DNA of 43,340 nt from an uncultured delta proteobacterium (GTDB lineage: Bacteria; Desulfobacterota; Desulfuromonadia; Desulfuromonadales; BM103). The translations under genes and the position numbers were made by a program. Position 1 is the first letter of the stretch; every line of letters starts with the position of its first letter. The notes below the pieces were generated by a model. That model was not told the origin of the DNA. It did no database searches and saw only the letters and a program-made list of their open reading frames with translations. The DNA is taken from the NCBI GenBank assembly GCA_963715335.1, contig CAVQRZ010000032.1, positions 1 to 43,340 of the forward strand, read 5' to 3'. This document shows positions 45-12,645 of the stretch, piece after piece.

Positions 45-80
45 AAAAAGGGATGAGAACCTCGCCGAAGTTTTCATCCC
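45..80 (-). terminator. Rho-independent terminator downstream of the repeat-protein gene
   Basis: Minus strand reads GGGATGAAAAC-ttcggcgag-GTTCTCATCCC followed by TTTTT, 28 nt after the stop at 109. Confidence 0.75.
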
Positions 81-108
81 GAATAAGTATAGCTGCAAGA
101 GACCAGAT

Positions 109-546
109 TTAACTGCGGTCTTTGTCCTGATCTTTCAGCTGGTCTTTGTCCTGATCTTTCAGCTGGTCTTTGTCCTGATCTTTCAGCTGGTCTTTGTCCT
201 GATCTTTCAACTGGTCTTTGTCCTGATCTTTCAGCTGATCCCGGTCACGGTCCCGGCTGCGCTCCTGTTCCATTGTCCGGGTGCGTTCCATTTCTACGGA
301 ACCCTTGCCGAAGCCGCCGGTTTCTGCAGGACTGCCATGCTCGCCCGGCCCACCCGCATCAGCGTTGCCACCACCGCTACCGGAGCCACCACCGCTACCG
401 TCACCCCCGCCAGCCTTGGCTAAATAAATCGTTGATGGCCCTTCATGATTCCCGTTGACGGCCTCTACAGGGATGGCCCAAACAACCAGAATCAAGCTGG
501 CAAGGCCAACCATGAGCACTTTGACGATTTTGCGTATTCTTTTCAT
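109..546 (-). CDS. Secreted low-complexity protein (Gly-rich linker, C-terminal DQLKDQDK repeats), 145 aa
   Basis: ATG at 546 preceded by AAGGAG; signal peptide MKRIRKIVKVLMVGLASLILVVWAIPVEA; the upstream extension to 768 in the ORF track lacks an RBS. Confidence 0.75.
   Translation of the reverse strand: MKRIRKIVKVLMVGLASLILVVWAIPVEAVNGNHEGPSTIYLAKAGGGDGSGGGSGSGGGNADAGGPGEHGSPAETGGFGKGSVEMERTRTMEQERSRDRDRDQLKDQDKDQLKDQDKDQLKDQDKDQLKDQDKDQLKDQDKDRS
117..236. repeat. Coding tandem repeat, 5 x 24 bp (GGTCTTTGTCCTGATCTTTCAGCT)
   Basis: Five consecutive copies with one G>A change in copy 4; encodes the DQLKDQDK repeat on the minus strand. Confidence 0.97.
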
Positions 547-808
547 GACAATTCTCCTTATACGCCGCCCGCCCTTCTCGGCGTGAAAATTGCGCCACTG
601 CAGCCGGAGCGACTCAGCCATCCCCAACCCAGCAACAATCTTGAACATCGACAAACCTCTGACCTCTTTCATTGTCACATACTTCTGAGGCAACACAATT
701 GGACAAAAGGTTACAGATGCACGTAGAAAGTACGATACTAAATCATCAATGGTCTTGTCGGTTCGCATTGTTATTTTGTATCAATTGCCACTTATCAGCC
801 TTGACCTA

Positions 809-824
809 TACTCATTAAGTGGTA
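809..824. promoter_or_regulatory. Putative NarL-type 7-2-7 operator in the divergent promoter region
   Basis: TACTCAT-TA-AGTGGTA matches TACYNMT-n2-AKNRGTA exactly; lies just downstream of TTGACC (801-806) and 50 nt before the LuxR gene. Confidence 0.4.
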
Positions 825-873
825 AAAGTTAAAAATACCTCATATTTAAATATCCACCTTCGACTACTTTACG

Positions 874-1485
874 GTGACTAGCGTGACTATTAACATTCAG
901 CTGGCCCTAAGTAACCATCTCTTTTGCGAAGGCGTCAAAAAACTCGCCAGTGAAACCTGTGCCGGTTTCATTTTCAACGATGTTCATGAAAACACTACGG
1001 CCTTTACAGCAGATATCGTCCTCTTCGATGCCAAGAGAGACATTAGTGACTTGATCAATACACATCCCGAGGCCAAGTTCGTTCTCGTCGACACGGGGCT
1101 CAAAGAGACCGACCTGGCATGTCTTCTTTTGTGCTATCACATCAGCGGCATTATCCCTCAGGATACTGATCTGACGAACTTCAGCAAGGCCCTGAAAGTG
1201 ATTTATGATGGCGATGTCTGGATCGATCAGAAATATCTTAAAATACTGATCAACAAGGGCAAGAAACTGTCTGAGGGAGACGGCGTCAAAGGCTTGAGTG
1301 CCCAAGACATGAAAATTGTCGAGTTCATCTCCTTGGGGTACAAAAATAGCGAGATCGCCGATCAGCTGTGCCTCAGCGAAGTGACGATCAAGGCTCATGT
1401 CAGCAAGATTTTCAAGATGCTCAAGGTCAAGAACCGGACCCAGCTGGCCTGCTTAGCTTGGGACAGTGAATCGCCAGGGCCTTGA
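874..1485 (+). CDS. LuxR/NarL-family transcription factor with atypical receiver domain (CsgD/VpsT-like)
   Basis: C-terminal LSAQDMKIVEFISLGYKNSEIADQLCLSEVTIKAHVSKIFKMLKVKNRTQL is a LuxR HTH; REC-like N-terminus (DIVLFD) lacks the acidic pair and the conserved Lys; GTG start uncertain. Confidence 0.88.
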   Translation: MTSVTINIQLALSNHLFCEGVKKLASETCAGFIFNDVHENTTAFTADIVLFDAKRDISDLINTHPEAKFVLVDTGLKETDLACLLLCYHISGIIPQDTDLTNFSKALKVIYDGDVWIDQKYLKILINKGKKLSEGDGVKGLSAQDMKIVEFISLGYKNSEIADQLCLSEVTIKAHVSKIFKMLKVKNRTQLACLAWDSESPGP

Positions 1486-1591
1486 ATACCAGACGCCATT
1501 GCGTCCTTTCCAAGGTATCGACAGTTCGCTGGCTTCACAGCACTTGCATAGATAAAAAGACATCCGATTGCTTCACTTGCAGGAGGTGCCC

Positions 1592-4165
1592 ATGATCAGA
1601 TCGTTTTTATCTCACGTCTCATTGCTGTGTTTTCTCCTGTCTGTAACGGTCTTGCCGACATGGTCTCAGGAGGCTCTTACCGAGCAACCGGAATCTGTAG
1701 AACAAATCGCAGCCACAGAGACCAAATCTTTTTCCGGTATCGAAATGGGCTCGTTTCGTCTGCTACCGGAGTTGACTGTCTCCGGAATGTACGATGACAA
1801 CATTTACGCAACTCGCACTGAAACAAAATCGGATCGCATCCTTCACCTGTTCCCGTCCCTCGAGCTCAAATCAAATTGGTCAAAACACGACTTCGGTCTC
1901 AACCTTGGGGCAGACATCGCCAGATACGATAAATACACAGACGAGGATTTCGAGGACTACTGGGGATCGGCAAATGGTCGTTATGACGTCTCAGAGGCCC
2001 TTAACCTGTTTGGCGGCATCAGCTACAGTCGTGAGCACGAGGAGCGCGGGTCTCCCGAGGATCAAAACGGCATTGAACCGACGATCTTCCATTCCCAGGC
2101 CGCTCATCTTGGCAGTGAGATTAAAATCAACAAACTGACGTTTCGCTTTGGCGGCACGTACGAAGCGCTGGACTTTGACGATGTTGACACCACCACAGGG
2201 TTGACTATCAACAACGATGACCGTGACCGTGAACTGCTGGGCGCCGGGGCCCGGGTCGGCTACGGCTGGTCGGAAGATGTTCAGATTTTTGCGCAGTATA
2301 TTTACGACGATCGACAATACGACAACAAAAGAGATGACAACGGCTACCGTCGCGATTCGGACGGTTACGAACTGGCGGCCGGCCTTAAATATGTCATGAA
2401 ACCTGCCCTCTCAGCGGAACTCTACGCAGGGGCACTGCACCAGGAATATGCAGACGACCGCTTTTCAACCGTCAGTAAACCGGATTTCGGCGCCCAAGTC
2501 ACCTGGCTGCCGAGCCCGGTAGCCAAAATCAGTGGTGTTATCGAGCGCTCCATCGAGGAAACCACCATAATCGGCAGCTCAGGCTACCTCGAGACCCGCT
2601 ACGCTCTCGATGTAGGCTACAACCTGAGCCGCAATACGAGCTTTCACAGTCACCTGCAGCTCTCCGAGGATGATTACCAGGAGATCTCACGGGAAGACAG
2701 GAATATCGAGGCGGGGTTCGGCCTGCAGTACGATCTGAGCAAAAATCTTTTTCTCGGCGCCGACTACAGTTTCAGCCATCGTAATTCGAACGTCGACGGC
2801 GACAGTCCCGACAGCAACGATTATTACCGCCACCAGTTCATGGTCAGCCTCGGCAGTCGACTCTACCCGGTCAAGGATGACCCCCTGGAGGGCTTTACCA
2901 AGGCTCTGACGGGTTTGTACAAGGGCGCTGAACCGCCACGAGGATTTTACCTGGGCGGCTTGTTCTCCTACGGTGCCATGGCGACGAAAGCCAGCGAGGA
3001 GCGCCTGCATGGCGGCTCGAGCAAGGCGGACTTCGGCGCCGACGGAAGTGCCGGCGGCATCTTCAGCGGTTACAGCATCACTCATGATCGCTGGGTATTC
3101 GGTCTGGAGCTGGAAGCAGAGGACAGCTCCTTGGAATGGACGCACAAAAAAAACAAGACCGAGAGCAGGAGGTTTTCCGTCAAACAGAACGAAGGTCTGG
3201 GCGCCAGTGCGCGAATCGGCTACACGATGCTAGACGGCTCGATCCTTTACACCCGCGTCGGTTTTATAAATACCCGCTTTGACACCTCTTACGTGATAAA
3301 CGAGGCCCTTGAGGAAAACTACTCAGAGACCCAGACATTGACCGGCTTGCGGATCGGTGTGGGTCTGGACATCCCGCTTTCCCCGCAGTGGTTCTGGCGC
3401 ATGGAGACAACCTATACCGACTATGAGTCGTATGCCGTCGACTCTGCCGCCTTTGACGAGAAATTTGAACCGGAAGCTCACTTCTTCAGCTTTGGTCTGG
3501 GATGGCGCTTCGATGCCGTGGAAGAGCCTGCATCAGCCCCGATCAGCGAAGATTTGACTGGACCCTACGCCGGAGTACAGCTCGGTTTCGGAACGCTCGC
3601 TACAGAGGTTGAGGGATCGCATAGTGACGGTGGAGGGAGTGAAACAGGCCCCTTTCCATATACTAGCGACTTTGCCGATCAGGGCGTCAATTCAGGCCTG
3701 TTTGTCGGCTACGGTACAATGTTTAACCGCATCTACGTTGGGGCCGAGCTTGAAGCGGAAGTGAATGGCATGGAATGGTTCCGTGAGCGCAAAACATCGG
3801 GTGGCGGCAGGAATTTTTCCGTTGAGATCAAGGAGGGGTATGGCGCCAGCGCCAGGCTCGGCTATCAGTTTCGCAAGGGTACGCTGGGCTATTTGAGAGC
3901 CGGCATCATCAGCTCAAAGGTCATCACCCGATATGCCAAGGGAGGCAACCGGGCCAACGATATTTACCGCGACGATTCTCTCGACGGAGTCCGTTTCGGC
4001 ATCGGTTTCGAAACCCCGATTACCAGCAGGGTTTCTGCCCGCCTTGAATATACCCACACGGACTATGAAGATTACGACCTGGTTACGGCACACACCAATA
4101 GCGACCAGCTGAATTTCGAACACAGCCAGGACTTGGTCAGACTGGGCATCCTGTCCAGGTTCTGA
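1592..4165 (+). CDS. Outer-membrane protein: BBP2-type barrel fused to two OmpA/Omp25-like 8-stranded barrels
   Basis: AGGAGG RBS before ATG 1592; signal peptide; N-part YDDNIY...; alternating aromatic beta-strands; two repeats GFYLGG...GLGWRF and GPYAGV...GILSRF; terminal Phe. Confidence 0.8.
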   Translation: MIRSFLSHVSLLCFLLSVTVLPTWSQEALTEQPESVEQIAATETKSFSGIEMGSFRLLPELTVSGMYDDNIYATRTETKSDRILHLFPSLELKSNWSKHDFGLNLGADIARYDKYTDEDFEDYWGSANGRYDVSEALNLFGGISYSREHEERGSPEDQNGIEPTIFHSQAAHLGSEIKINKLTFRFGGTYEALDFDDVDTTTGLTINNDDRDRELLGAGARVGYGWSEDVQIFAQYIYDDRQYDNKRDDNGYRRDSDGYELAAGLKYVMKPALSAELYAGALHQEYADDRFSTVSKPDFGAQVTWLPSPVAKISGVIERSIEETTIIGSSGYLETRYALDVGYNLSRNTSFHSHLQLSEDDYQEISREDRNIEAGFGLQYDLSKNLFLGADYSFSHRNSNVDGDSPDSNDYYRHQFMVSLGSRLYPVKDDPLEGFTKALTGLYKGAEPPRGFYLGGLFSYGAMATKASEERLHGGSSKADFGADGSAGGIFSGYSITHDRWVFGLELEAEDSSLEWTHKKNKTESRRFSVKQNEGLGASARIGYTMLDGSILYTRVGFINTRFDTSYVINEALEENYSETQTLTGLRIGVGLDIPLSPQWFWRMETTYTDYESYAVDSAAFDEKFEPEAHFFSFGLGWRFDAVEEPASAPISEDLTGPYAGVQLGFGTLATEVEGSHSDGGGSETGPFPYTSDFADQGVNSGLFVGYGTMFNRIYVGAELEAEVNGMEWFRERKTSGGGRNFSVEIKEGYGASARLGYQFRKGTLGYLRAGIISSKVITRYAKGGNRANDIYRDDSLDGVRFGIGFETPITSRVSARLEYTHTDYEDYDLVTAHTNSDQLNFEHSQDLVRLGILSRF

Positions 4166-4370
4166 GAACCTCTCTGCAAAACCCTCTTCTCGTCCCATAA
4201 CCGCCTGCCAGGGAACGAAAGTATCAATACCTTTGGGTCCTAAAATATACCCGCTTGGATCATTGCACCTTAACTTCAGAGTGAGAAAATATTAATACAT
4301 ATTTTCTCCGGAGTATAAGCAGGATTGTGTAGGAAAAAGCCCTGTTATCTGGGCGGAAAAGGAGGCAGCT

Positions 4371-5612
4371 ATGAGAGGCATGGTGAAGTCACAATTTTCA
4401 GGCGCGACCGCGACAAAGAACCTCTTTAAAGCATTGGGGATAGCCGTCGGAATTGTTCTCTTGTTGTTATTTATGACACCTTTCACCAGCAGCACGCTGA
4501 TGGTTGACGAGGCGATGGCTGCAGGTCCTGCCGCACAACAGGGCAGCGGGAAAATGATGGGTGGAGGACAAGGTGGTAAGGGCGGCAAAGGCGATCAGAC
4601 CGCCGGATCCAGAAGTGGCGCCAAAGGAATGAAGGACGCGGTGCTGGCGGAGGAGGGCGATGATGACTCGGATGCCCCCGAGTGGGCCAAGGGCAACCGC
4701 GATGCGAACCCCCATGCACAGGGTGGCGGCCCCCCTGCCGGTTCGGGCACCAAAAAGGGTGACGACTATGGCGATCTCTGGGTGGTCGTGCGTGATCCGG
4801 CAACCGGCGAACCAGAACTTGACATTAACGGCAATGTCCAGCCCATCTTGACGGAGGCGGTCATACCGGTTCTCGATGAGAATGGCAACCCGGTTCTCGA
4901 TGAGAATGGCAACCCGGTTTATACCAACGTCCTTCAGTTGACAGAAGATGGCGAGGTACCGGTGAATTATGAGACCTATCTTCAGGAAGTCGAATTCGGC
5001 CGTTTAAGTAGTAGCCGGTCACCGAACAAGGTGTCGGACAAAGCCCTCGAAGAGGTTCTGAACAAACTAGATCTCGTCATCCCTGAGGAAGGTGAAATCC
5101 CTGATGGGATCATCACGGTCGATACTGCCGGGCGGCTTGTGATCGACGGCGCAACCGTTGATTCCCCGCTCGAGAACCTGGCTTTGTACGAAGCCCTGAT
5201 TGGCGGAACGCTTGATGATAAGTATACGGCGGTGTTGCCGGTTGACAAATTGACTCTGGCAGCGAGCCTGCTGGCAGCGGCTGCGGATAAATCAGGTGAG
5301 ATAACCCTCGACCTGGTGTTCTACCAGAATGCAATCCTTGGCCTCACCGGGACGCCGGATACTCCTGATTATATCGATTACTCTGGTCTCACCTACGATA
5401 GAAGCGTCTACGATGAAGACTACACTTATTTCTATTACGTTGGCACCGTCCCGACTGCGGACACGATCAATCTCAAGAGCTACCTGGAGTATATAAACGG
5501 GACACTGCCAACCGGTGCTGCTGCCATCTTCGCAGCAGCAACCGACGATGCTCTGAAAATCATCGAACTGATCCACGACGAGGTCCGCGATGAGCAGATC
5601 ATAATGCCATAG
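4371..5612 (+). CDS. Exported acidic hypothetical protein with Gly-rich linker and EVEFGRL/SPLENLALY/AAADK domain
   Basis: AAGGAGG RBS; hydrophobic N-terminal segment ending AMA; 413 aa; paralogous to the next gene. Confidence 0.85.
   Translation: MRGMVKSQFSGATATKNLFKALGIAVGIVLLLLFMTPFTSSTLMVDEAMAAGPAAQQGSGKMMGGGQGGKGGKGDQTAGSRSGAKGMKDAVLAEEGDDDSDAPEWAKGNRDANPHAQGGGPPAGSGTKKGDDYGDLWVVVRDPATGEPELDINGNVQPILTEAVIPVLDENGNPVLDENGNPVYTNVLQLTEDGEVPVNYETYLQEVEFGRLSSSRSPNKVSDKALEEVLNKLDLVIPEEGEIPDGIITVDTAGRLVIDGATVDSPLENLALYEALIGGTLDDKYTAVLPVDKLTLAASLLAAAADKSGEITLDLVFYQNAILGLTGTPDTPDYIDYSGLTYDRSVYDEDYTYFYYVGTVPTADTINLKSYLEYINGTLPTGAAAIFAAATDDALKIIELIHDEVRDEQIIMP
4866..4919 (+). repeat. Coding tandem duplication, 2.25 x 24 bp (PVLDENGN)
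   Basis: CCGGTTCTCGATGAGAATGGCAAC twice exactly, plus CCGGTT. Confidence 0.95.
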
Positions 5613-5620
5613 CGGCAGGA

Positions 5621-5663
5621 AATTCGTTGGCCACCAATTTGATGGTCAACGAATTGGTGGCCA
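5621..5663. other. Intergenic overlapping inverted repeats (two alternative hairpins)
   Basis: 5628-5639 pairs perfectly with 5652-5663 (12 bp); alternatively 5621-5636 pairs with 5640-5655 (one G-U pair, one mismatch). Confidence 0.7.
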
Positions 5664-5697
5664 TGCAGGAGTGATAAAACACAACAGGGGTGGAACG

Positions 5698-6396
5698 ATG
5701 ATGACAGTTAATCGCAAACAGATTTATCGGTTTTTGTCTCTCTGCCTGACAACGCTGGCCCTGGTCCTATTTCTCGGCGACGCGCCTCTGGCCGTCGCCT
5801 CGGAAGACGGCAGCTCTCACAGCGGCAGCTCTCACAGCGGCGGCCAGGGCAGCAGTCACGCCAGCAAGGGCAAGCGTGGCGGGTCCGGCCATGACAGTGG
5901 TGATCATGGCAGCTCTCACGTTAAAGGCAAGGGCAAAGGCAATCATGGGGGTCAGGCAGGTGACAGTAGCGTAACCAGAGACCGTGGGCGGCGACCGGTC
6001 TGGGCGCAGGAAGGTCTCCCTGAAGTCGAACTGGGCCGTCTGAATGCGGCACGGGCACCCGACCATGTCCTCACCAGGTCTCTGGCAGAAGCTCACACAG
6101 CATTGGCTGCCGACCCCCAGGCCAGCATCCACTCGCCTCCCCAGAACCTGGCACTCTACTGGGAGGCGATGAGCGGTCAAAAAGGATGGAGCCGGGAACA
6201 GGCGGCAGCGTTTCTGGGTGCGGCCGCGGACAAGCGAATCCCGATCACCCCCGACACGGTCAGAGCACTGAACCTCATCCTCGGGGTATCGGATGCGGAC
6301 CCGGCAGGGATGGCACAAGCAGCTGACAGCGTCAGACAGCAGATTCTGGCCGATCATGACCAGGGCACCGAGTCGGGAGGTTCCGGGGGCCACTAG
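5698..6396 (+). CDS. Secreted His/Gly/Ser-rich hypothetical protein with EVELGRL/SPPQNLALY/AAADK domain
   Basis: ATG 5698/5701 after AGGGGTGG; signal peptide ending AVA; GSSH repeats (15-bp duplication at 5809-5838); paralog of 4371..5612. Confidence 0.82.
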   Translation: MMTVNRKQIYRFLSLCLTTLALVLFLGDAPLAVASEDGSSHSGSSHSGGQGSSHASKGKRGGSGHDSGDHGSSHVKGKGKGNHGGQAGDSSVTRDRGRRPVWAQEGLPEVELGRLNAARAPDHVLTRSLAEAHTALAADPQASIHSPPQNLALYWEAMSGQKGWSREQAAAFLGAAADKRIPITPDTVRALNLILGVSDADPAGMAQAADSVRQQILADHDQGTESGGSGGH

Positions 6397-6420
6397 GGTT
6401 CGTTGGTCAAGGAGAAGATT

Positions 6421-6756
6421 ATGCGATGGACACGAGATTTGATTTTGGCTGGTGTTCTCCTGCTTGGCGCCGCCGGCGTGTTTGGGGCTCAGGAGCAGAC
6501 TCGGCCGGGGAGCACTCTTCAGCAACATGAGGACGTCTACGGTTGGCAGATGATGAGCGAGCAGGAGCGCCATGAACATCAACAACAGATGAGAGAGATG
6601 AAAACCGAACCGGAACGCGAGGCCTTCCGCAAGCAACACCACGAAAAGATGCAGGAGCGGGCCCGGCAACAGGGGCTGACGTTGCCGGACAGCCCCGGTC
6701 CTCACGGCAAGGGGATGGGGTCCGGCAGTGGCCATCAGAACAGACGTGGCCAGTAA
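6421..6756 (+). CDS. Small periplasmic Gln/Glu/His/Met-rich helical protein
   Basis: AAGGAG RBS; signal peptide; core VYGWQMMSEQERHEHQQQMREMKTEPEREAFRKQHHEKMQERARQQGLTLPD; Gly-rich tail. Confidence 0.82.
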   Translation: MRWTRDLILAGVLLLGAAGVFGAQEQTRPGSTLQQHEDVYGWQMMSEQERHEHQQQMREMKTEPEREAFRKQHHEKMQERARQQGLTLPDSPGPHGKGMGSGSGHQNRRGQ

Positions 6757-6803
6757 CCATACCAGAAAGGAACCGTCGATTCGCAGCAAGTTGTGAACAA
6801 TTT

Positions 6804-6829
6804 ATGCCCGGGCTGGCAAGCCCGGGCAT
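6804..6829. terminator. Hairpin between convergent genes (probable terminator)
   Basis: Perfect 11-bp stem ATGCCCGGGCT-ggca-AGCCCGGGCAT; weak T tracts. Confidence 0.55.
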
Positions 6830-6852: not shown

Positions 6853-8529
6853 CTATTGCCTCGTCAAATTACGATAACGAATCCGGTGGGGCTGGTCGGC
6901 GTCCTTGCCGAGACGGCGCTTGCGATCTTCCTCGTATTCCGAGTAATTCCCCTCATACCAGACCACCTGGGAGTTCCCTTCGAAGGCGAGGATGTGGGTC
7001 GCGATGCGATCAAGGAACCAGCGGTCATGGCTGATCACCACAGCGCAGCCGGCGAAATTCTCGAGGGCTTCTTCAAGGGCACGCAGAGTATTGACGTCGA
7101 GGTCGTTAGTCGGTTCGTCGAGCAGCAGGACATTCGATTCCTCGCGCATGATCTTGGCCAGGTGCACGCGGTTACGCTCACCGCCGGAGAGCACGCCGAC
7201 CTTCTTCTGCTGATCACCGCCTGAGAAGTTAAACCGGGCCACGTACCCGCGCGAGTTGACCAACTGCTTGCCGAGCAGCATCTGCTCCTGGCCGCCGGTG
7301 ATTTCCTCGAAGATGGTTTTGCTGCCATCGAGGGGGCGATCCTGGTCGACATAGGCCAGCTTGACTGTCTCGCCAATCTTGAAAGTCCCCGAATCGGCTT
7401 GCTCCTGGCCGGTGATCATGCGGAACAGGGTGGTCTTACCGGCACCGTTGGGGCCAATCACACCGACAATCCCGCCTGGCGGGAGCATGAAGTTCATCTT
7501 TTCGTAAAGCAGCTTGTCATCATAGGCTTTGGATACGTCGCGGGCTTCGACGACGGTGTTGCCGAGACGGGGCCCGGGGGGGATGTAAATTTCCATGTCC
7601 CGCTCGCGCTCTGCCGCGTCCTGATTGAGCAGCTTCTCGTAAGAGCTGATGCGGGCCTGGCCCTTGGCATGGCGCGCCTTGGGGCTCATACGTATCCACT
7701 CGAGTTCGCGCTGCAGGGTCTTCTGACGATTGCTCTCCGCCTTGTCTTCCTTGCGCAGACGCTCCTGCTTCTGCTCCAGCCAACTCGAGTAGTTGCCCTT
7801 CCAGGGAATGCCATGGCCTCGATCAAGCTCAAGGATCCAGCCGGCAACGTTGTCGAGGAAATAGCGATCATGGGTTACGGCGATGATCGTCCCTGCATAG
7901 CGCTGCAGGTGCTGCTCCAGCCAGCCAACGGTTTCAGCGTCGAGGTGGTTGGTCGGCTCGTCGAGCAACAGGATATCGGGCTTCTGCAGCAGCAGGCGGC
8001 AGAGCGCAACGCGGCGCTTTTCACCCCCGGAAAGGATTTTTATGCGAGTGTCCGCCGGTGGGCAGCGCAGGGCGTCCATGGCCAGGTCCAGCCGCGAATC
8101 CAGCTCCCAGGCATCCAGTGCATCGAGCTTGTCCTGGACCACAGCCTGGCGCTCACAGAGTTTTTCCATGTCGCAATCGGGGTCGGCAAAAGCTTCGTTG
8201 ATCGCCTCGAACTCTTTGAGCAGGTCAACGGTCTCCTGAACACCCTCTTCAACCACTTCGCGCACCGTCTTGTCACAGTCGACCAGAGGCTCCTGTTCGA
8301 GATAGCCTACGGTGTAGCCGTCAGAGAGCATCGTCTCGCCATTGAACTCTTTATCGACTCCGGCCATGATCCGCAGCAGGGTCGACTTGCCGGAACCGTT
8401 GAGACCGAGCACACCGATTTTGGCACCGTAAAAGTAGGAAAGGGAAATGTCCTTGATGACCGGCTTGCCGCTGTAGTTCTTGTTGACGCCGACCATCGAG
8501 TAAATGATTTTCTTGGTATCTTCGCTCAT
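6853..8529 (-). CDS. ettA: Energy-dependent translational throttle ABC-F ATPase
   Basis: Two ABC domains ([44 protein letters not shown]); typical [15 protein letters not shown] and PHRIRY termini. Confidence 0.96.
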
Positions 8530-8614
8530 GATCCTGTCCTGTCTGAAAGGTTATTTCACAGAACATGGCTTATACACCATCTGGGCACAAGGAGCAAGAG
8601 TGGTCAAGGGGTTT

Positions 8615-8656
8615 CCCAGCCCCTAGCCCCCAGCCCCCGCACTTCAAGTCCCCGCA
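8615..8656. repeat. Degenerate heptanucleotide repeat array (CCCAGCC-type)
   Basis: cccagcc cctagcc cccagcc cccgcac in the divergent intergenic region. Confidence 0.6.
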
Positions 8657-8724
8657 TTTAAAGTTGACTCTTTGATCATGAAGTTGTTCAATCATCCGAC
8701 AACATCACCGAGAGGCAGGAAGAT

Positions 8725-9999
8725 ATGAGTTTTCTGAAAAAGCTGTTCGGCAAAAAAGACCCGATTGACGAGATGCGCCAATGCCATACCCGGCAGGACT
8801 GGGTAGGAGTTCTGAATATAGCGGGACAGGTTGACCGGAACGAGTACGATGATGCCACTGCGGCCGAGATCACCCGGTGGGAGAACCAGGCCGGTGATGC
8901 CCTGGCAGCAATGAATATGGAGGAAGGGTCCTGGGAACAGCAATCAGGAAACCTGTTGCGTGCCCGCGAAGATTACCAGCTGGCCATCGAGCAGGCCCGC
9001 TCCAGTCAACTGCGCGAACGTGCCGAGCAGGCCCTGGCTGCCCTGGACCGTGGTCAGCCCCCTTCTGAGGAGCAGGCCGTCGATGCAAGTCCGGCCCAGC
9101 ATGCCGGTTGCAACAGCTGCACACCGGCGGCGGAGCCGAGGGCTGACGGCGTGGGCACGGACCTCGACGAGGAAACCCGCATGGAACTGCTCCTGGCCAC
9201 CCTGTCGCCGGACCTCGCAGCGCGCTACCTGGCGACCGGAACGGAATTCAGACAGGCCTGGTTGACTGCTCAGGAAGGGGATGAAAAGCTGGCCTTGGAG
9301 CTTTTGGCAAAAGTTCCCGCCGCGGAACGCAATGCCTTGTTCCTCTTCGAACGGGGGTCCTTGATGATGCGCAGCGGCCAGAACCATAAAGCCCGCCAGG
9401 ACCTGCAGGCCGCTTTGGCCGCTGAACCCGACCTGTTCCCGGCCTACGACACACTGACCGAAATCCTGATTGCCGAAGGGCGCAGCGACGAACTGCAGAA
9501 ATCGCTCAAACAGAATATCGCCGAAGAACGCTTTGTCGGTTATTGCTGGGCCAGGCTGGCGGAGCTGCATGCCCAGCGTGGCGCACTGGAGCCGGCCCTG
9601 GCCGCCGGACTCACAGCCATTGATGAAGGAGTTGCCGACCCCGGCCTGATCATGCTCTGCTCGCAACTGCTGGAACGTGCAGAACGTTTCGCTGAAGCAG
9701 AAGCGCTGCTGATGCGGATGCCCGGGGGCGGCTGTGGCGGCGGAGTTCACCCGATGCTGGCCGAATACTGGCTAAGGCGCGGGCAGAACCTGAACAAGGC
9801 GCTTGAGTCATTCAAGGGAGCCATGCGCCAGGAGACCGACAACCCCCGCTGGCTGCTGCGCGTCGCCCAGGTATACCTGGCCAAGGGGTGGAAGAAGGAG
9901 GCCTCAGAGCAGGTCGAGCGCCTGATGAGGCAAGGGGGGCTGCCAGACCCGATTCGTGCTGAAGTCCAAGCTGTGGCCGATCAATTGCAGAAAGGGTGA
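8725..9999 (+). CDS. Tetratricopeptide-repeat protein with HAGCNSC and GGCGGG motifs
   Basis: Ala/Leu-rich helical repeats (ARQDLQAALAAEPD, ALESFKGAMRQETDNP); AGGA RBS. Confidence 0.8.
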   Translation: MSFLKKLFGKKDPIDEMRQCHTRQDWVGVLNIAGQVDRNEYDDATAAEITRWENQAGDALAAMNMEEGSWEQQSGNLLRAREDYQLAIEQARSSQLRERAEQALAALDRGQPPSEEQAVDASPAQHAGCNSCTPAAEPRADGVGTDLDEETRMELLLATLSPDLAARYLATGTEFRQAWLTAQEGDEKLALELLAKVPAAERNALFLFERGSLMMRSGQNHKARQDLQAALAAEPDLFPAYDTLTEILIAEGRSDELQKSLKQNIAEERFVGYCWARLAELHAQRGALEPALAAGLTAIDEGVADPGLIMLCSQLLERAERFAEAEALLMRMPGGGCGGGVHPMLAEYWLRRGQNLNKALESFKGAMRQETDNPRWLLRVAQVYLAKGWKKEASEQVERLMRQGGLPDPIRAEVQAVADQLQKG

Positions 10000-10042
10000 A
10001 CAGGGGCAAACTGATCAAGAACCGCCTAAAGAAACCTGCCGT

Positions 10043-11773
10043 TCAGTTTGAATGGTTTGTGCGGCCCGACCTTAACAGGTTCGCAGCTCCGATGCGCAGG
10101 ATCTCCAGCCACTTGAAATTCATCATGTGGCGACGCCAGAACAGCTCCTGCTTGTCGCAGACCGTCGAAACGCTGTACTCATGGATGTCACCGCGCAATC
10201 GATCCAGTGTTTCTGAATCCATATCCCCCTGTGATAGGGCAAGCCGGTCCTTCAACGCCCTGGCCTGCTTGATCCTCTGTGCGACCCCAACTCCGCGCGC
10301 CTGTTCAACTCGCCCGTAGCGGAGCTTCATGGCGTTCAGAGCCTCAGCCGCATCGTAGGTCACTTCGACCATCTCGTCACGACTCATCCACTCCGTTTCA
10401 TAGTTCATTATCTGTCCCCAGGTCGGCTGAAGAAGCAACCGGCGGTGCTCTTCCAGGGTTTTTGCAAACAACCGGTAGCCGTACTTCTCCGGATGCTCGA
10501 AACCATGGCTGCCGGGATCGAGAAAGGGGCCCATCGGCGAGATAAAACAGGATAGCCGCCGGTCATAACTGCGAAAGAGCCTTTCACAATAGCCGATTGT
10601 TTTCATCACAGATTCGCAGGTCTGTCCGGACAAGCCGATCATGAAGAACACATCGAGGCGGTGACAACCCAATTTCAGGGCTTCCGCGATCACGGACTCC
10701 ATCTCGTCATTGGTGTAAAAAACCTGAGAATCCTGGCGGCGTCGAACCTCTTCGTCATGACTCTCAGGTGACAGTTCGAGGCTCCAATTTTTCACCGACC
10801 TGTCGATCGCCCGCAAATACTCAGGGGCGGGCATACCGAAGACTTCGAAAACGATCTCGTTTGCGAGCCGCTCCTCAGCAAGGCGTAGCAATGTCTCGCG
10901 GACATAATCATCTCCGGCCTGAAGCAGGTCGCCGACCAGGAAGATCGGCCCGCGCGAAATCCTGCAGACATCCGAAATGTTCTTGACCAGGCTGAGCGGG
11001 CTCCTGAACGCCGGCTTGTTCCGCATGTTCAACAGCCCGCTGGCATGGCCAGACCCCCCACAGGTGACACATTCGTGCACACAGCCACGGACGGTGAAAA
11101 CCGCAGTAATCGGATTCTGCCACCAGCCGTTGAACGGCAGGACGCTTTGCAGGTCGCGGTGACGCAGAACCATGCGAACCATACGCTCTGGGGCCAAATC
11201 GACATAATCCATATCCGGGGAGGTGCATATGAAAGGGTTGACTTGAATCTTTCCCTGCTTTTTCCACACCAGGTTCGGCACGTCCTCCAGGAGGCCAGCT
11301 CCTCGCAGGCAGAGCAGCAGGGCATACAAGTGCGGCTCTACAGCATCCCCCCGCAGGATAAAATCTACCTGGGGATAACGGATCAGCTCATCGTGATAAT
11401 AGCTTGCTGACAAACCGCCCAAAATAACCGGGATTTCCGGATGGCACTCCTTGGCCAGTCGCGCAATCTCGAGGGCACCATGCGCATGCGGCAACCAGTG
11501 CAGGTCGATACCGAAAGCCTTGGGCTTGAGTTTTGACAGGAACCTGGGGACATCGAATCCGGGATCGTTCATCATCCGCAAGGCCAGGTTGACAATGCGC
11601 ACCGTCAGGCCTCTGGACTCGAGGTAGTCTGTCATAGTCAGGAAACCGAGTGGATACATCTCGAAGACTGGAGAGGACGGGATCAGGTCACTGACCGGGC
11701 CATACATAATGGCTTCCTTACGGAAGTCATAAACACTTGGCGGATGCAGCAAGACCAGATCGGTCCGGGGCAT
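10043..11773 (-). CDS. B12-binding domain/radical SAM protein (TIGR04190-like)
   Basis: RGCVHECVTCGGS radical SAM motif; B12-binding region (GIDLHWLPHAHG, ILGGLSAS); N-terminus DLVLLHPPSVYDFR...FEMYPLGF; GGAGG RBS. Confidence 0.88.
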   Translation of the reverse strand: MPRTDLVLLHPPSVYDFRKEAIMYGPVSDLIPSSPVFEMYPLGFLTMTDYLESRGLTVRIVNLALRMMNDPGFDVPRFLSKLKPKAFGIDLHWLPHAHGALEIARLAKECHPEIPVILGGLSASYYHDELIRYPQVDFILRGDAVEPHLYALLLCLRGAGLLEDVPNLVWKKQGKIQVNPFICTSPDMDYVDLAPERMVRMVLRHRDLQSVLPFNGWWQNPITAVFTVRGCVHECVTCGGSGHASGLLNMRNKPAFRSPLSLVKNISDVCRISRGPIFLVGDLLQAGDDYVRETLLRLAEERLANEIVFEVFGMPAPEYLRAIDRSVKNWSLELSPESHDEEVRRRQDSQVFYTNDEMESVIAEALKLGCHRLDVFFMIGLSGQTCESVMKTIGYCERLFRSYDRRLSCFISPMGPFLDPGSHGFEHPEKYGYRLFAKTLEEHRRLLLQPTWGQIMNYETEWMSRDEMVEVTYDAAEALNAMKLRYGRVEQARGVGVAQRIKQARALKDRLALSQGDMDSETLDRLRGDIHEYSVSTVCDKQELFWRRHMMNFKWLEILRIGAANLLRSGRTNHSN

Positions 11774-11958
11774 GGTGGGCCTCCATCGACTGCGATGCTA
11801 ATTCCCCGGCAAATTGCGTGGGTTTTACTTGATTATATCAGGTATTTTGTGGAGACTGCTCCCGACCTGTTTGCAACGCGCAATGCTCCTTGAAGCCCCC
11901 GGGGCTTCCATGCTAAGTTGCGGCACCTTCGCCCAACCAAAAACAACCGTGGAAGACT

Positions 11959-12645
11959 ATGATATTACAGGGAACGCTGGTTAACATAGCAGCCGTTGTC
12001 GCTGGCTGCCTGATCGGTAAGTGGGCTGGCCGATATCTGTCGGCAAAAATGCGTGAGACCCTGATGGTCGGGCTGGGGCTCGCGGTTCTGCTGATCGGTC
12101 TGCAACTCGCACTGCAGAGTCGGCAGATCATGATTGTGATTGGCAGCCTGATCTTTGGCGGCTTGATCGGCGAAGGGCTCGGCTTGGAAAACCGGCTGGA
12201 ACAATTCGGCCTGCACTTGCAGAAACGGTTCTCCGGCATGGGCAAGATTGCCGAAGGCTTTGTAACCGCGAGCCTGCTTTATTGTGTCGGGGCGATGGCG
12301 ATCATGGGCGCCCTGCAGGACGGACTGGGAGGCCCGCCGTCGATCCTCTATGCCAAGGCGGCCCTCGATGGCGTGGCATCTATCGCGCTGACCTCGACGC
12401 TTGGCATCGGCGTGATCTTCTCCGTCATTCCCCTGCTTCTCTACCAGGGCGGGATCACCCTGGCGGCAAAACTCGCTGAAACCGTTCTCACAGAACCGGT
12501 CATAGTTGAGATGAATGCTGTCGGCGGGTTGCTGATTGTCGCCATTGCCATCGACCTGCTGGGGATCAAACGTCTGCCGGTGGGGAACCTGCTCCCGGCC
12601 GTGTTTGTCGCCATTGGACTGCTCTGGGCTTTCGGCATGGCCTGA
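11959..12645 (+). CDS. DUF554 (YqgA-like) membrane protein
   Basis: GTLVN start; EGFVTASLLYCVGAMAIMGALQDG; KAALDG; LPVGNLLPA. Confidence 0.92.
   Translation: MILQGTLVNIAAVVAGCLIGKWAGRYLSAKMRETLMVGLGLAVLLIGLQLALQSRQIMIVIGSLIFGGLIGEGLGLENRLEQFGLHLQKRFSGMGKIAEGFVTASLLYCVGAMAIMGALQDGLGGPPSILYAKAALDGVASIALTSTLGIGVIFSVIPLLLYQGGITLAAKLAETVLTEPVIVEMNAVGGLLIVAIAIDLLGIKRLPVGNLLPAVFVAIGLLWAFGMA

Follow-up and report, generated by a model that had tools for sequence, protein, structure and literature searches.

What could be the function of six adjacent genes that encode an outer-membrane protein made of three barrels but no recognizable enzyme? The question is raised by positions 45 to 6,829 of contig CAVQRZ010000032.1 (assembly GCA_963715335.1), a stretch of 43,340 nucleotides, hereafter the window, from an uncultured delta proteobacterium of the BM103 lineage. 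In order, the genes encode g1, a small secreted-type protein; a LuxR regulator; the triple-barrel protein; two secreted-type paralogues, one long and one short, here called AAADK proteins; and s111, another small secreted-type protein. A preliminary description, made from the letters alone, had placed six genes here, in agreement with the open reading frame (ORF) listing of the window, and had viewed them as a single export and assembly module comparable to curli. We found instead that the conserved unit is a two- to three-gene core, smaller than this six-gene set, and that it represents a real and widespread barrel-plus-partner system. The system is apparently undescribed: no paper on the operon or on the AAADK partner was found in a literature search that covered subscription journals thinly and in which mentions as a hypothetical protein would escape. 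Our preferred interpretation, with a probability of roughly 45%, is that a homologue of polysaccharide porins, the barrel, has taken on a new task as a dedicated translocon for proteins that also anchors them at the surface, combining export with display. The core genes of the window are as follows.

1592..4165, + strand: triple-barrel outer-membrane protein, 857 aa; core (Pfam, AlphaFold, tree)
4371..5612, + strand: long AAADK protein, 413 aa, with a signal peptide, a disordered Gly/Lys tail and an acidic folded domain; core
5698..6396, + strand: short AAADK paralogue, 232 aa, with a His/Gly-rich tail

Pfam matched the outer-membrane protein to BBP2_2 (aa 48-420, 311 bits) and to two OMP_b-brl domains, and NCBIfam added weak EpsL and TIGR03016 matches. 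The AlphaFold model (17-row alignment, pLDDT 81) comprises barrels of 18, 8 and 8 strands, as counted from the strand list, and no plug domain, so the triple barrel announced by the preliminary description stands. The two small barrels are duplicated (33% identical to each other) and have strands of about 20 residues in the model, and a conserved His occurs in all three barrels. A PDB sequence search with the barrel profiles returned no match. The 8-stranded barrels may resemble Omp31 and haemin-binding proteins, and EpsX is presumably a BBP2_2 protein as well. In three close relatives (L001:1610-3946, L117:231-3293 and L118:523-3573, L numbers denoting the loci compared here), a periplasmic AMIN domain precedes the first barrel; the window copy has none.

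The two AAADK proteins, correctly recognized as paralogues before, are 33% identical over 134 aa (E 6e-7) and have the words EVE(F/L)GRL, ENLALY and AAADK in common. Their signal peptides, like those of the other secreted-type proteins, were judged by eye. The long protein, which contains no Cys, had been classified as low-complexity. In its model (59 rows, pLDDT 76), only residues 1-99 are disordered and the remainder folds with high confidence into an alpha/beta core. A structure search (VIA) with the whole 413-aa model gave a best Z of 3.9 among 48,161 solved chains and none with Z>=5, which falls short of proof that the fold is new. In 57 family members, Pfam and NCBIfam gave only stray matches in 1-2 members, and the best PDB sequence match to the AAADK profile had an E value of only 0.09. 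Leads from the ESM Atlas, all <0.9, were two hypothetical clusters and one CARDB cluster. According to a full HMMER search, the family comprises 958 clusters at 50% identity.

The neighborhood conservation suggested as a check by the preliminary description proved strong in both directions. A total of 185,579 species genomes were scanned with the AAADK alignment, and the best 80 of 346 stretches, mostly from alpha-, beta- and gammaproteobacteria, were analyzed. A barrel homologue was present in 68 of these 80 genome loci (55 complete triple barrels); it was located directly upstream on the same strand in 61 loci, just downstream on the same strand in 6 and on the opposite strand in 1, which makes 67/80 same-strand adjacent. 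For the 12 loci without a barrel ORF, 10 genomes (all but those of L020 and L078) were searched further. The barrel of L081 is cut by the contig edge, as read from the coordinates, and an orthologous barrel lies on another contig for L002, L007, L022 and L039. No barrel was found in the genomes of L011, L034 and L077, and only weak or distant matches in those of L023 and L059. The reverse search, a metagenome scan with the barrel, gave at least 198 relatives, of which the best 80 were considered. AAADK genes accompanied 24 of the 29 barrels with 8-stranded domains, and 22/22 of those with >=700 nt downstream, versus 3/51 of the barrels without 8-stranded domains (2/34 with enough flank). Since four loci (L009, L013, L026 and L139) keep AAADK with an 18-stranded barrel alone, it is the 18-stranded barrel that is the invariant partner. 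The pairing holds across classes and survives changes in gene order, related genomes not being independent samples. The gene after the long AAADK gene is usually a short paralogue, as in the window, or a small His/Gly-rich secreted protein, and the short paralogue thus occupies the slot of the stand-alone His/Gly-rich proteins of other loci.

Cultured environmental carriers include Guyparkeria, Thiohalobacter, Salinisphaera, Seohaeicola, Qipengyuania and Rhodanobacter. No AAADK match and only 19 partial barrel matches, none full-length, were detected in a plasmid collection, so the module is not plasmid cargo there. Nor was a natural barrel-AAADK fusion seen among the 8 longer homologues listed or the 19 long representatives scanned out of 150 listed. 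Closer to the window, 61 genomes around its own were searched and nine had AAADK matches; none of four congeners (83-96% complete) did. Nine regions examined from these relatives carry AAADK genes without a barrel, and the five of these genomes that were searched contained only distant BBP2 barrels. A secreted protein of 580-620 aa with weak DUF7453 likeness was observed after barrel-less AAADK genes (L097:10946-12775, L099:7843-9585, L101:2537-4291 and L011:11495-13369), one of them with PEP-CTERM.

A phylogenetic analysis of 139 BBP2 domains longer than 330 aa (FastTree, midpoint-rooted) separated a clade of 104 (support 0.984) from a clade of 35 (support 0.999) that has no AAADK neighbors. 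Within the former, 90 barrels are accompanied by AAADK (genome rows by selection), 10 lie on stretches too short to tell and 4 lack it. The window barrel groups with those of Methylococcaceae and Methylophaga (support 0.984). Of the 28 loci with a stand-alone BBP2 barrel, on the other hand, 27 contain an OPX gene and 22 a Wzz co-polymerase, and the sole one without OPX, L174, sits in the AAADK clade. Neither OPX nor Wzz was detected in 80 genome and 27 further AAADK loci or in the first 17 kb of the window, using hidden Markov models (HMMs) built from the ordinary loci that a very distant OPX could escape.

The GKG words that the preliminary description had pointed out do occur in all four non-barrel proteins, but they are purely compositional and were rejected as a meaningful motif. 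The informative common word is a different one, G-x-K/R-S-V/L-E-x-K/R-I/V-F/L, which stands at the end of the disordered tail and is common to otherwise unrelated partners. To score it, we used 25 small His/Gly proteins as the training set for a matrix of 12 columns and calculated p values against shuffles of each tail. The motif was present in 24 of the 25 training proteins and in 15 of 17 second paralogues at p<=0.01. In long proteins, the best site fell 42-62 residues ahead of the core in 59 of 76 cases versus 15.8 on average and at most 23 across 50 shuffles; the range of 42-62 was chosen after a first motif scan had been seen. Scores were negative in all six barrel-less AAADK proteins of relatives and in L011, L023 and L034, whose genomes are without an orthologous barrel. 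The matrix scan detected no motif in g1 and s111.

The company that the AAADK domain keeps elsewhere points to the cell exterior. It is fused to DUF11/CARDB in 4 proteins, to CWB2 and Big_13 in others, and to RTX repeats, SLH or CBM60 in 3 of 19 long matches scanned; the SLH fusion comes from an Acidimicrobiales genome and the RTX fusion has no signal peptide by eye. Tandem copies are found in apparent lipoproteins. Fusion modules of these kinds mark type I secreted or wall-anchored proteins, and the domain therefore most likely works outside the cell. Barrel-linked members carry none of these anchor modules, which would make the barrel their obvious route. The surface role of the acidic domain would most likely be adhesion or cation/mineral binding, a tentative assignment. 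In the apparent lipoproteins with two AAADK domains (L102:8859-11321; P0241-P0244), the AAADK-word segment comes first, a circular permutation by eye. In the AAADK-DUF11 proteins, the final segment is a poly-Gly tail, possibly a sorting signal.

A second copy of the locus was found in the same assembly (G000), at the start of contig C1, the window being C32. The two are 95-97% identical over about 26 kb including housekeeping genes, and bin contamination is 6.9%. The C1 copy is thus most likely a second strain and not a duplication; because the bin holds two strain versions of this 26-kb region, copy number in the genome is unreliable. On C1, the barrel gene is frameshifted and encodes an additional AMIN domain at the N terminus, and a DUF2202-like gene has been added. 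The long AAADK proteins of the two copies are identical at 92 of 99 positions in the N-terminal part and at 140 of 277 in the core, and the C1 core is about 70% identical to gammaproteobacterial versions. This difference indicates that the passenger domain has been exchanged with barrel, tail and flanks unchanged. Surface proteins often undergo such core swaps.

If the barrel indeed exports and displays its partners, all of them would cross the inner membrane by Sec, to judge from the signal peptides recognized by eye. Cleavage would expose the predicted disordered Gly/Lys/His tail, ending in the shared amphipathic motif, which would act as a targeting signal in the way that N22 does for CsgG. 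The cargo would then thread the plug-less 18-stranded lumen and fold outside, where a surface docking platform would be provided by the pair of long 8-stranded barrels, which some loci lack. In this manner, both the neighboring AAADK protein and its His/Gly-rich partner would leave through the barrel and be retained by it at the surface. A wider claim, which we consider almost as probable, is that proteins are secreted here in a way of a new type. A lineage of polysaccharide-export porins, repurposed, would recognize the short motif ending a disordered Gly/His tail, export a new-fold surface domain with His-rich partners and display them on two fused 8-stranded barrels, and its translocon domain, twice fused to the large barrels of decaheme conduits, would supply these with their outer-surface protein.

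Several observations weigh against export and display. Both the export of AAADK and its binding by the barrel are predictions, and 18-stranded barrels of tested function, in passages of two papers (PMC9601211, PMC9603273), are described as exporting polysaccharide, not protein. Only 29 of the 76 long proteins pass p<=0.05 individually in the motif scan. The site of the window's own long protein (about aa 81-92) lies at the expected distance but is degenerate and scores as background (p 0.9), the window's short paralogue and its C1 twin are the two second paralogues that the scan missed, and L059, whose only barrel is a distant one, carries a motif-like word. An AAADK gene is missing from the vicinity of four barrels of the AAADK clade that have enough flank, three of them MtrB fusions and the fourth L174. 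Distances between barrels correlate modestly with those between cargos (rho 0.25), which is partly explained by kinship. Lastly, AAADK occupies the slot that belongs to the periplasmic OPX in ordinary BBP2 loci, and a periplasmic partner therefore fits this arrangement equally well.

AAADK could accordingly replace OPX at the periplasmic face or in the lumen, where it would gate a small solute, metal or polymer, with the His-rich proteins as periplasmic carriers. Its position directly behind the barrel, the mutual exclusion of AAADK and OPX, a barrel model without a plug of its own and the His-rich tails of the second gene are all consistent with this role. We nevertheless consider it unlikely, since the same domain is found on RTX proteins that show no evident signal peptide and on proteins anchored to the wall by SLH or CWB2, the loci have no recurrent TonB, ABC or polysaccharide genes, and a 50%-identical allele can take the place of the core domain. 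It is also improbable that the barrel is solely an anchor, with AAADK leaving by a general route such as type II secretion and the triple barrel acting as a surface receptor comparable to Wzi, which is titled an outer-membrane lectin with an 18-stranded barrel (PMC3791409) and has a reported role in capsule tethering. AAADK proteins with a signal peptide but no barrel do exist in relatives, so another exit route must serve these if they are extracellular, and the 8-stranded barrels, with their long strands, must project past the membrane. However, the loci that keep AAADK with the 18-stranded barrel alone make the pore, rather than the projecting barrels, the invariant element, and the common motif lies in a disordered tail near the signal peptide, where export signals sit.

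A purpose in extracellular electron transfer, serving porin-cytochrome conduits or guarding the surface from metal precipitates under low oxygen, concerns the function of the module rather than its route, can be reconciled with export by the barrel, and has some genomic backing. BBP2-MtrB/PioB double-barrel fusions were found at five loci (L080:1046-4429, L172:301-3633, L184:5689-9150, L187:2543-6028 and L188:5905-9165), four of which have decaheme genes as neighbors and three an octaheme gene in addition; an AAADK gene lies near the fusions of L080 and L184 and the cut-off one of L173. A second type joins BBP2 to a 740-aa barrel with no Pfam match and weak MtrB likeness (L067:5893-9540 and L072:6130-9693), with the genes arranged as Crp/Fnr, decaheme, barrel, AAADK, His-rich protein. 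The two fusion types occupy separate places in the tree, and L009 holds an unfused decaheme-MtrB-BBP2-AAADK array. Multiheme genes occur in 4 of 29 triple-barrel loci compared to 0 of 40 ordinary BBP2 loci, Crp/Fnr genes neighbor 18 of the 80 genome loci (many kin), and the His conserved in the three barrels fits as well. DUF2202 genes recur beside AAADK loci (L001:7262-7885, L014, L028, L100 and L123). The link is thus a minority but recurrent one, and as the purpose of the module we regard it as quite unlikely: a multiheme gene is present in only 5 of the 80 genome loci, no heme motif occurs in the six window genes, and three MtrB fusions are without an AAADK gene in the available flank. The curli- or Fap-like amyloid matrix of the preliminary description, with all six genes as one unit under a CsgD-like master regulator, can hardly be maintained. 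It is favored by the CsgD resemblance, the divergent layout and the secreted low-complexity proteins, and the order g1-luxR-barrel is indeed kept in L119 and L001. The regulator is confirmed as a LuxR protein by its GerE match in Pfam; as for CsgD, this and ErdR are its best full-length resemblances in NCBIfam, yet both fall far under cut-off (60 versus 250 bits for CsgD). A LuxR gene of this type was present in only 2 of the 80 genome loci (L118, L119), which speaks against a six-gene unit and marks the regulator as lineage-specific. Moreover, no CsgG, CsgA or Fap family was matched, the pore being unrelated to CsgG and FapF by Pfam, and the modeled cargo core is an alpha/beta globular domain without Asn/Gln beta-arch repeats.

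The remaining features of the locus are accessory genes and hairpins.

50..80, - strand: hairpin with a U-run, 13 bp (z -1.6), likely terminator of the divergent repeat-protein gene g1
109..546, - strand: g1, 145-aa secreted-type Gly-rich protein with 24-nt/8-aa D/Q/K/R tandem repeats at its end; accessory
874..1485, + strand: LuxR/GerE regulator with a CsgD/ErdR-like N-terminal domain; lineage-specific accessory
5628..5663, + strand: 14-bp intergenic hairpin (z -3.4) between the two AAADK genes
6421..6756, + strand: s111, 111-aa secreted-type Gln/Glu/Arg-rich protein; frequent accessory
6804..6829, no strand assigned: 11-bp hairpin (z -2.7/-3.0, no U-run) between s111 and a convergent ABC-F ATPase gene

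The regulator may have lost a c-di-GMP motif. Of the nine barrel-less regions of relatives, 7 have this type of LuxR gene next to AAADK, and a g1 homologue is present in two; g1 homologues are found next to luxR in L001, L097, L101 and L119. The g1 gene is thus an accessory that travels with the LuxR gene in relatives, and Crp/Fnr is the commoner neighbor elsewhere. Given these relatives and the grouping of the window barrel with those of Methylococcaceae and Methylophaga, the window locus looks like a LuxR/g1 cassette of the lineage joined to an acquired barrel module. From the sequence, g1 most likely starts at ATG 546, with a ribosome-binding site at about 550-560, and its transcription diverges from that of the other genes. 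The s111 family was detected in 14 of 80 and 4 of 27 AAADK loci versus 0 of 28 ordinary BBP2 loci; its resemblance to Spy is weak (E 0.008, far under cut-off). In some loci (L015:11908-12330, L177:5376-5783 and L123:5342-5695), g1-type D/Q/R repeats are fused to an s111 domain, which suggests that g1 and s111 are parts of one accessory function. A g1-like gene also stands divergently ahead of the barrel in L123.

No enzyme family was matched in a Pfam scan of the six proteins, in line with the preliminary description, and g1, both AAADK proteins and s111 had no match above cut-off. The hairpins said to bound the six genes do exist, but the left one is weak (15 of 200 shuffles were equally good), the right one has no U-run, neither was listed by a consensus terminator scan or found in the C1 copy, and the third, at 5628-5663, is stronger. 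The latter is a possible mRNA stabilizer or attenuator. Beyond the locus, the neighbors at 6853-12645 are ordinary: an ABC-F ATPase, a TPR protein, a B12-binding radical SAM enzyme and a DUF554 protein. Contigs of related strains from 4 RNA runs (of 16 in 12 studies) cover parts of all six genes, and one spans the barrel end to the AAADK start; such contigs cannot show transcription and were not used as evidence.

How does the module compare with known systems? The barrel architecture itself has been catalogued. Solan et al. 2021 present an 18-8-8 family of 48-50 proteins from 14 proteobacterial orders as a distribution example (PMC8346858), in which a single chain likewise combines one 18-stranded barrel with two 8-stranded ones and which has an equal taxonomic range, covering alpha-, beta- and gammaproteobacteria, the match being one of architecture. 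The parts of that paper dealing with the family give no function, partner or gene context, and a literature search on 18-8-8 barrels found no other relevant paper. As in the passages on short OPX proteins, which pair with 18-stranded barrels for polysaccharide export (EpsX/EpsY, Wzp; PMC9601211, PMC9603273), and as in EpsL-type BBP2, the barrel is 18-stranded and plug-less with its partner gene directly behind; here, however, 0 of 107 loci have OPX or Wzz, the barrels form a separate clade, two extra barrels are present and the modeled fold of the partner is unrelated. For curli, type Vb and type XI secretion, we relied on the features given in passages of PMC13721041. Type VIII secretion (curli) has a Sec-exported cargo with a short targeting segment after the signal peptide and a dedicated pore, to which the predicted Sec export, the candidate motif (degenerate in the window) and the proposed translocon of the module would correspond, and the window has a CsgD-like regulator; curli uses nonameric CsgG and amyloid repeats whereas a monomeric 18-stranded barrel and a globular cargo are predicted here. 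Pfam and NCBIfam scans of the six proteins gave no homologue of any Csg structural protein and no curlin match. The same scans matched no family of the FapF-type barrel or FapC repeats that define Fap. Type Vb and type XI (Slam) follow the same two-gene logic, in which one barrel serves one cognate passenger and the outer membrane supplies no energy; the barrel described here is neither Omp85 nor Slam (no Pfam/NCBIfam match), and its cargo is not a lipoprotein. Finally, with MtrAB/PioAB conduits the module has in common that a minority of clade members is fused to MtrB and flanked by decaheme genes, but the window locus has neither MtrB nor cytochromes. Measured against the defining features that were tested, the module falls short of each of these systems and, on our reading, would work like a two-partner route with an N22-like signal.

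The preliminary picture of a dedicated barrel with a secreted partner is therefore retained in its essentials, through the strong co-occurrence, the lack of a matching known system and the extracellular fusions, but for a two- to three-gene core and not for six genes. For a multibarrel architecture that was catalogued but unexplained, a constant partner is now at hand, together with a candidate signal and a function that can be tested, and a large nameless family of surface domains, used across diderms and monoderms, is defined. Through the MtrB fusions, a connection to extracellular electron transfer comes into view. If export holds true, the module would constitute a new secretion route built on pores of a family known to export polysaccharide; its core would be minimal, at two genes, and its short tag portable.

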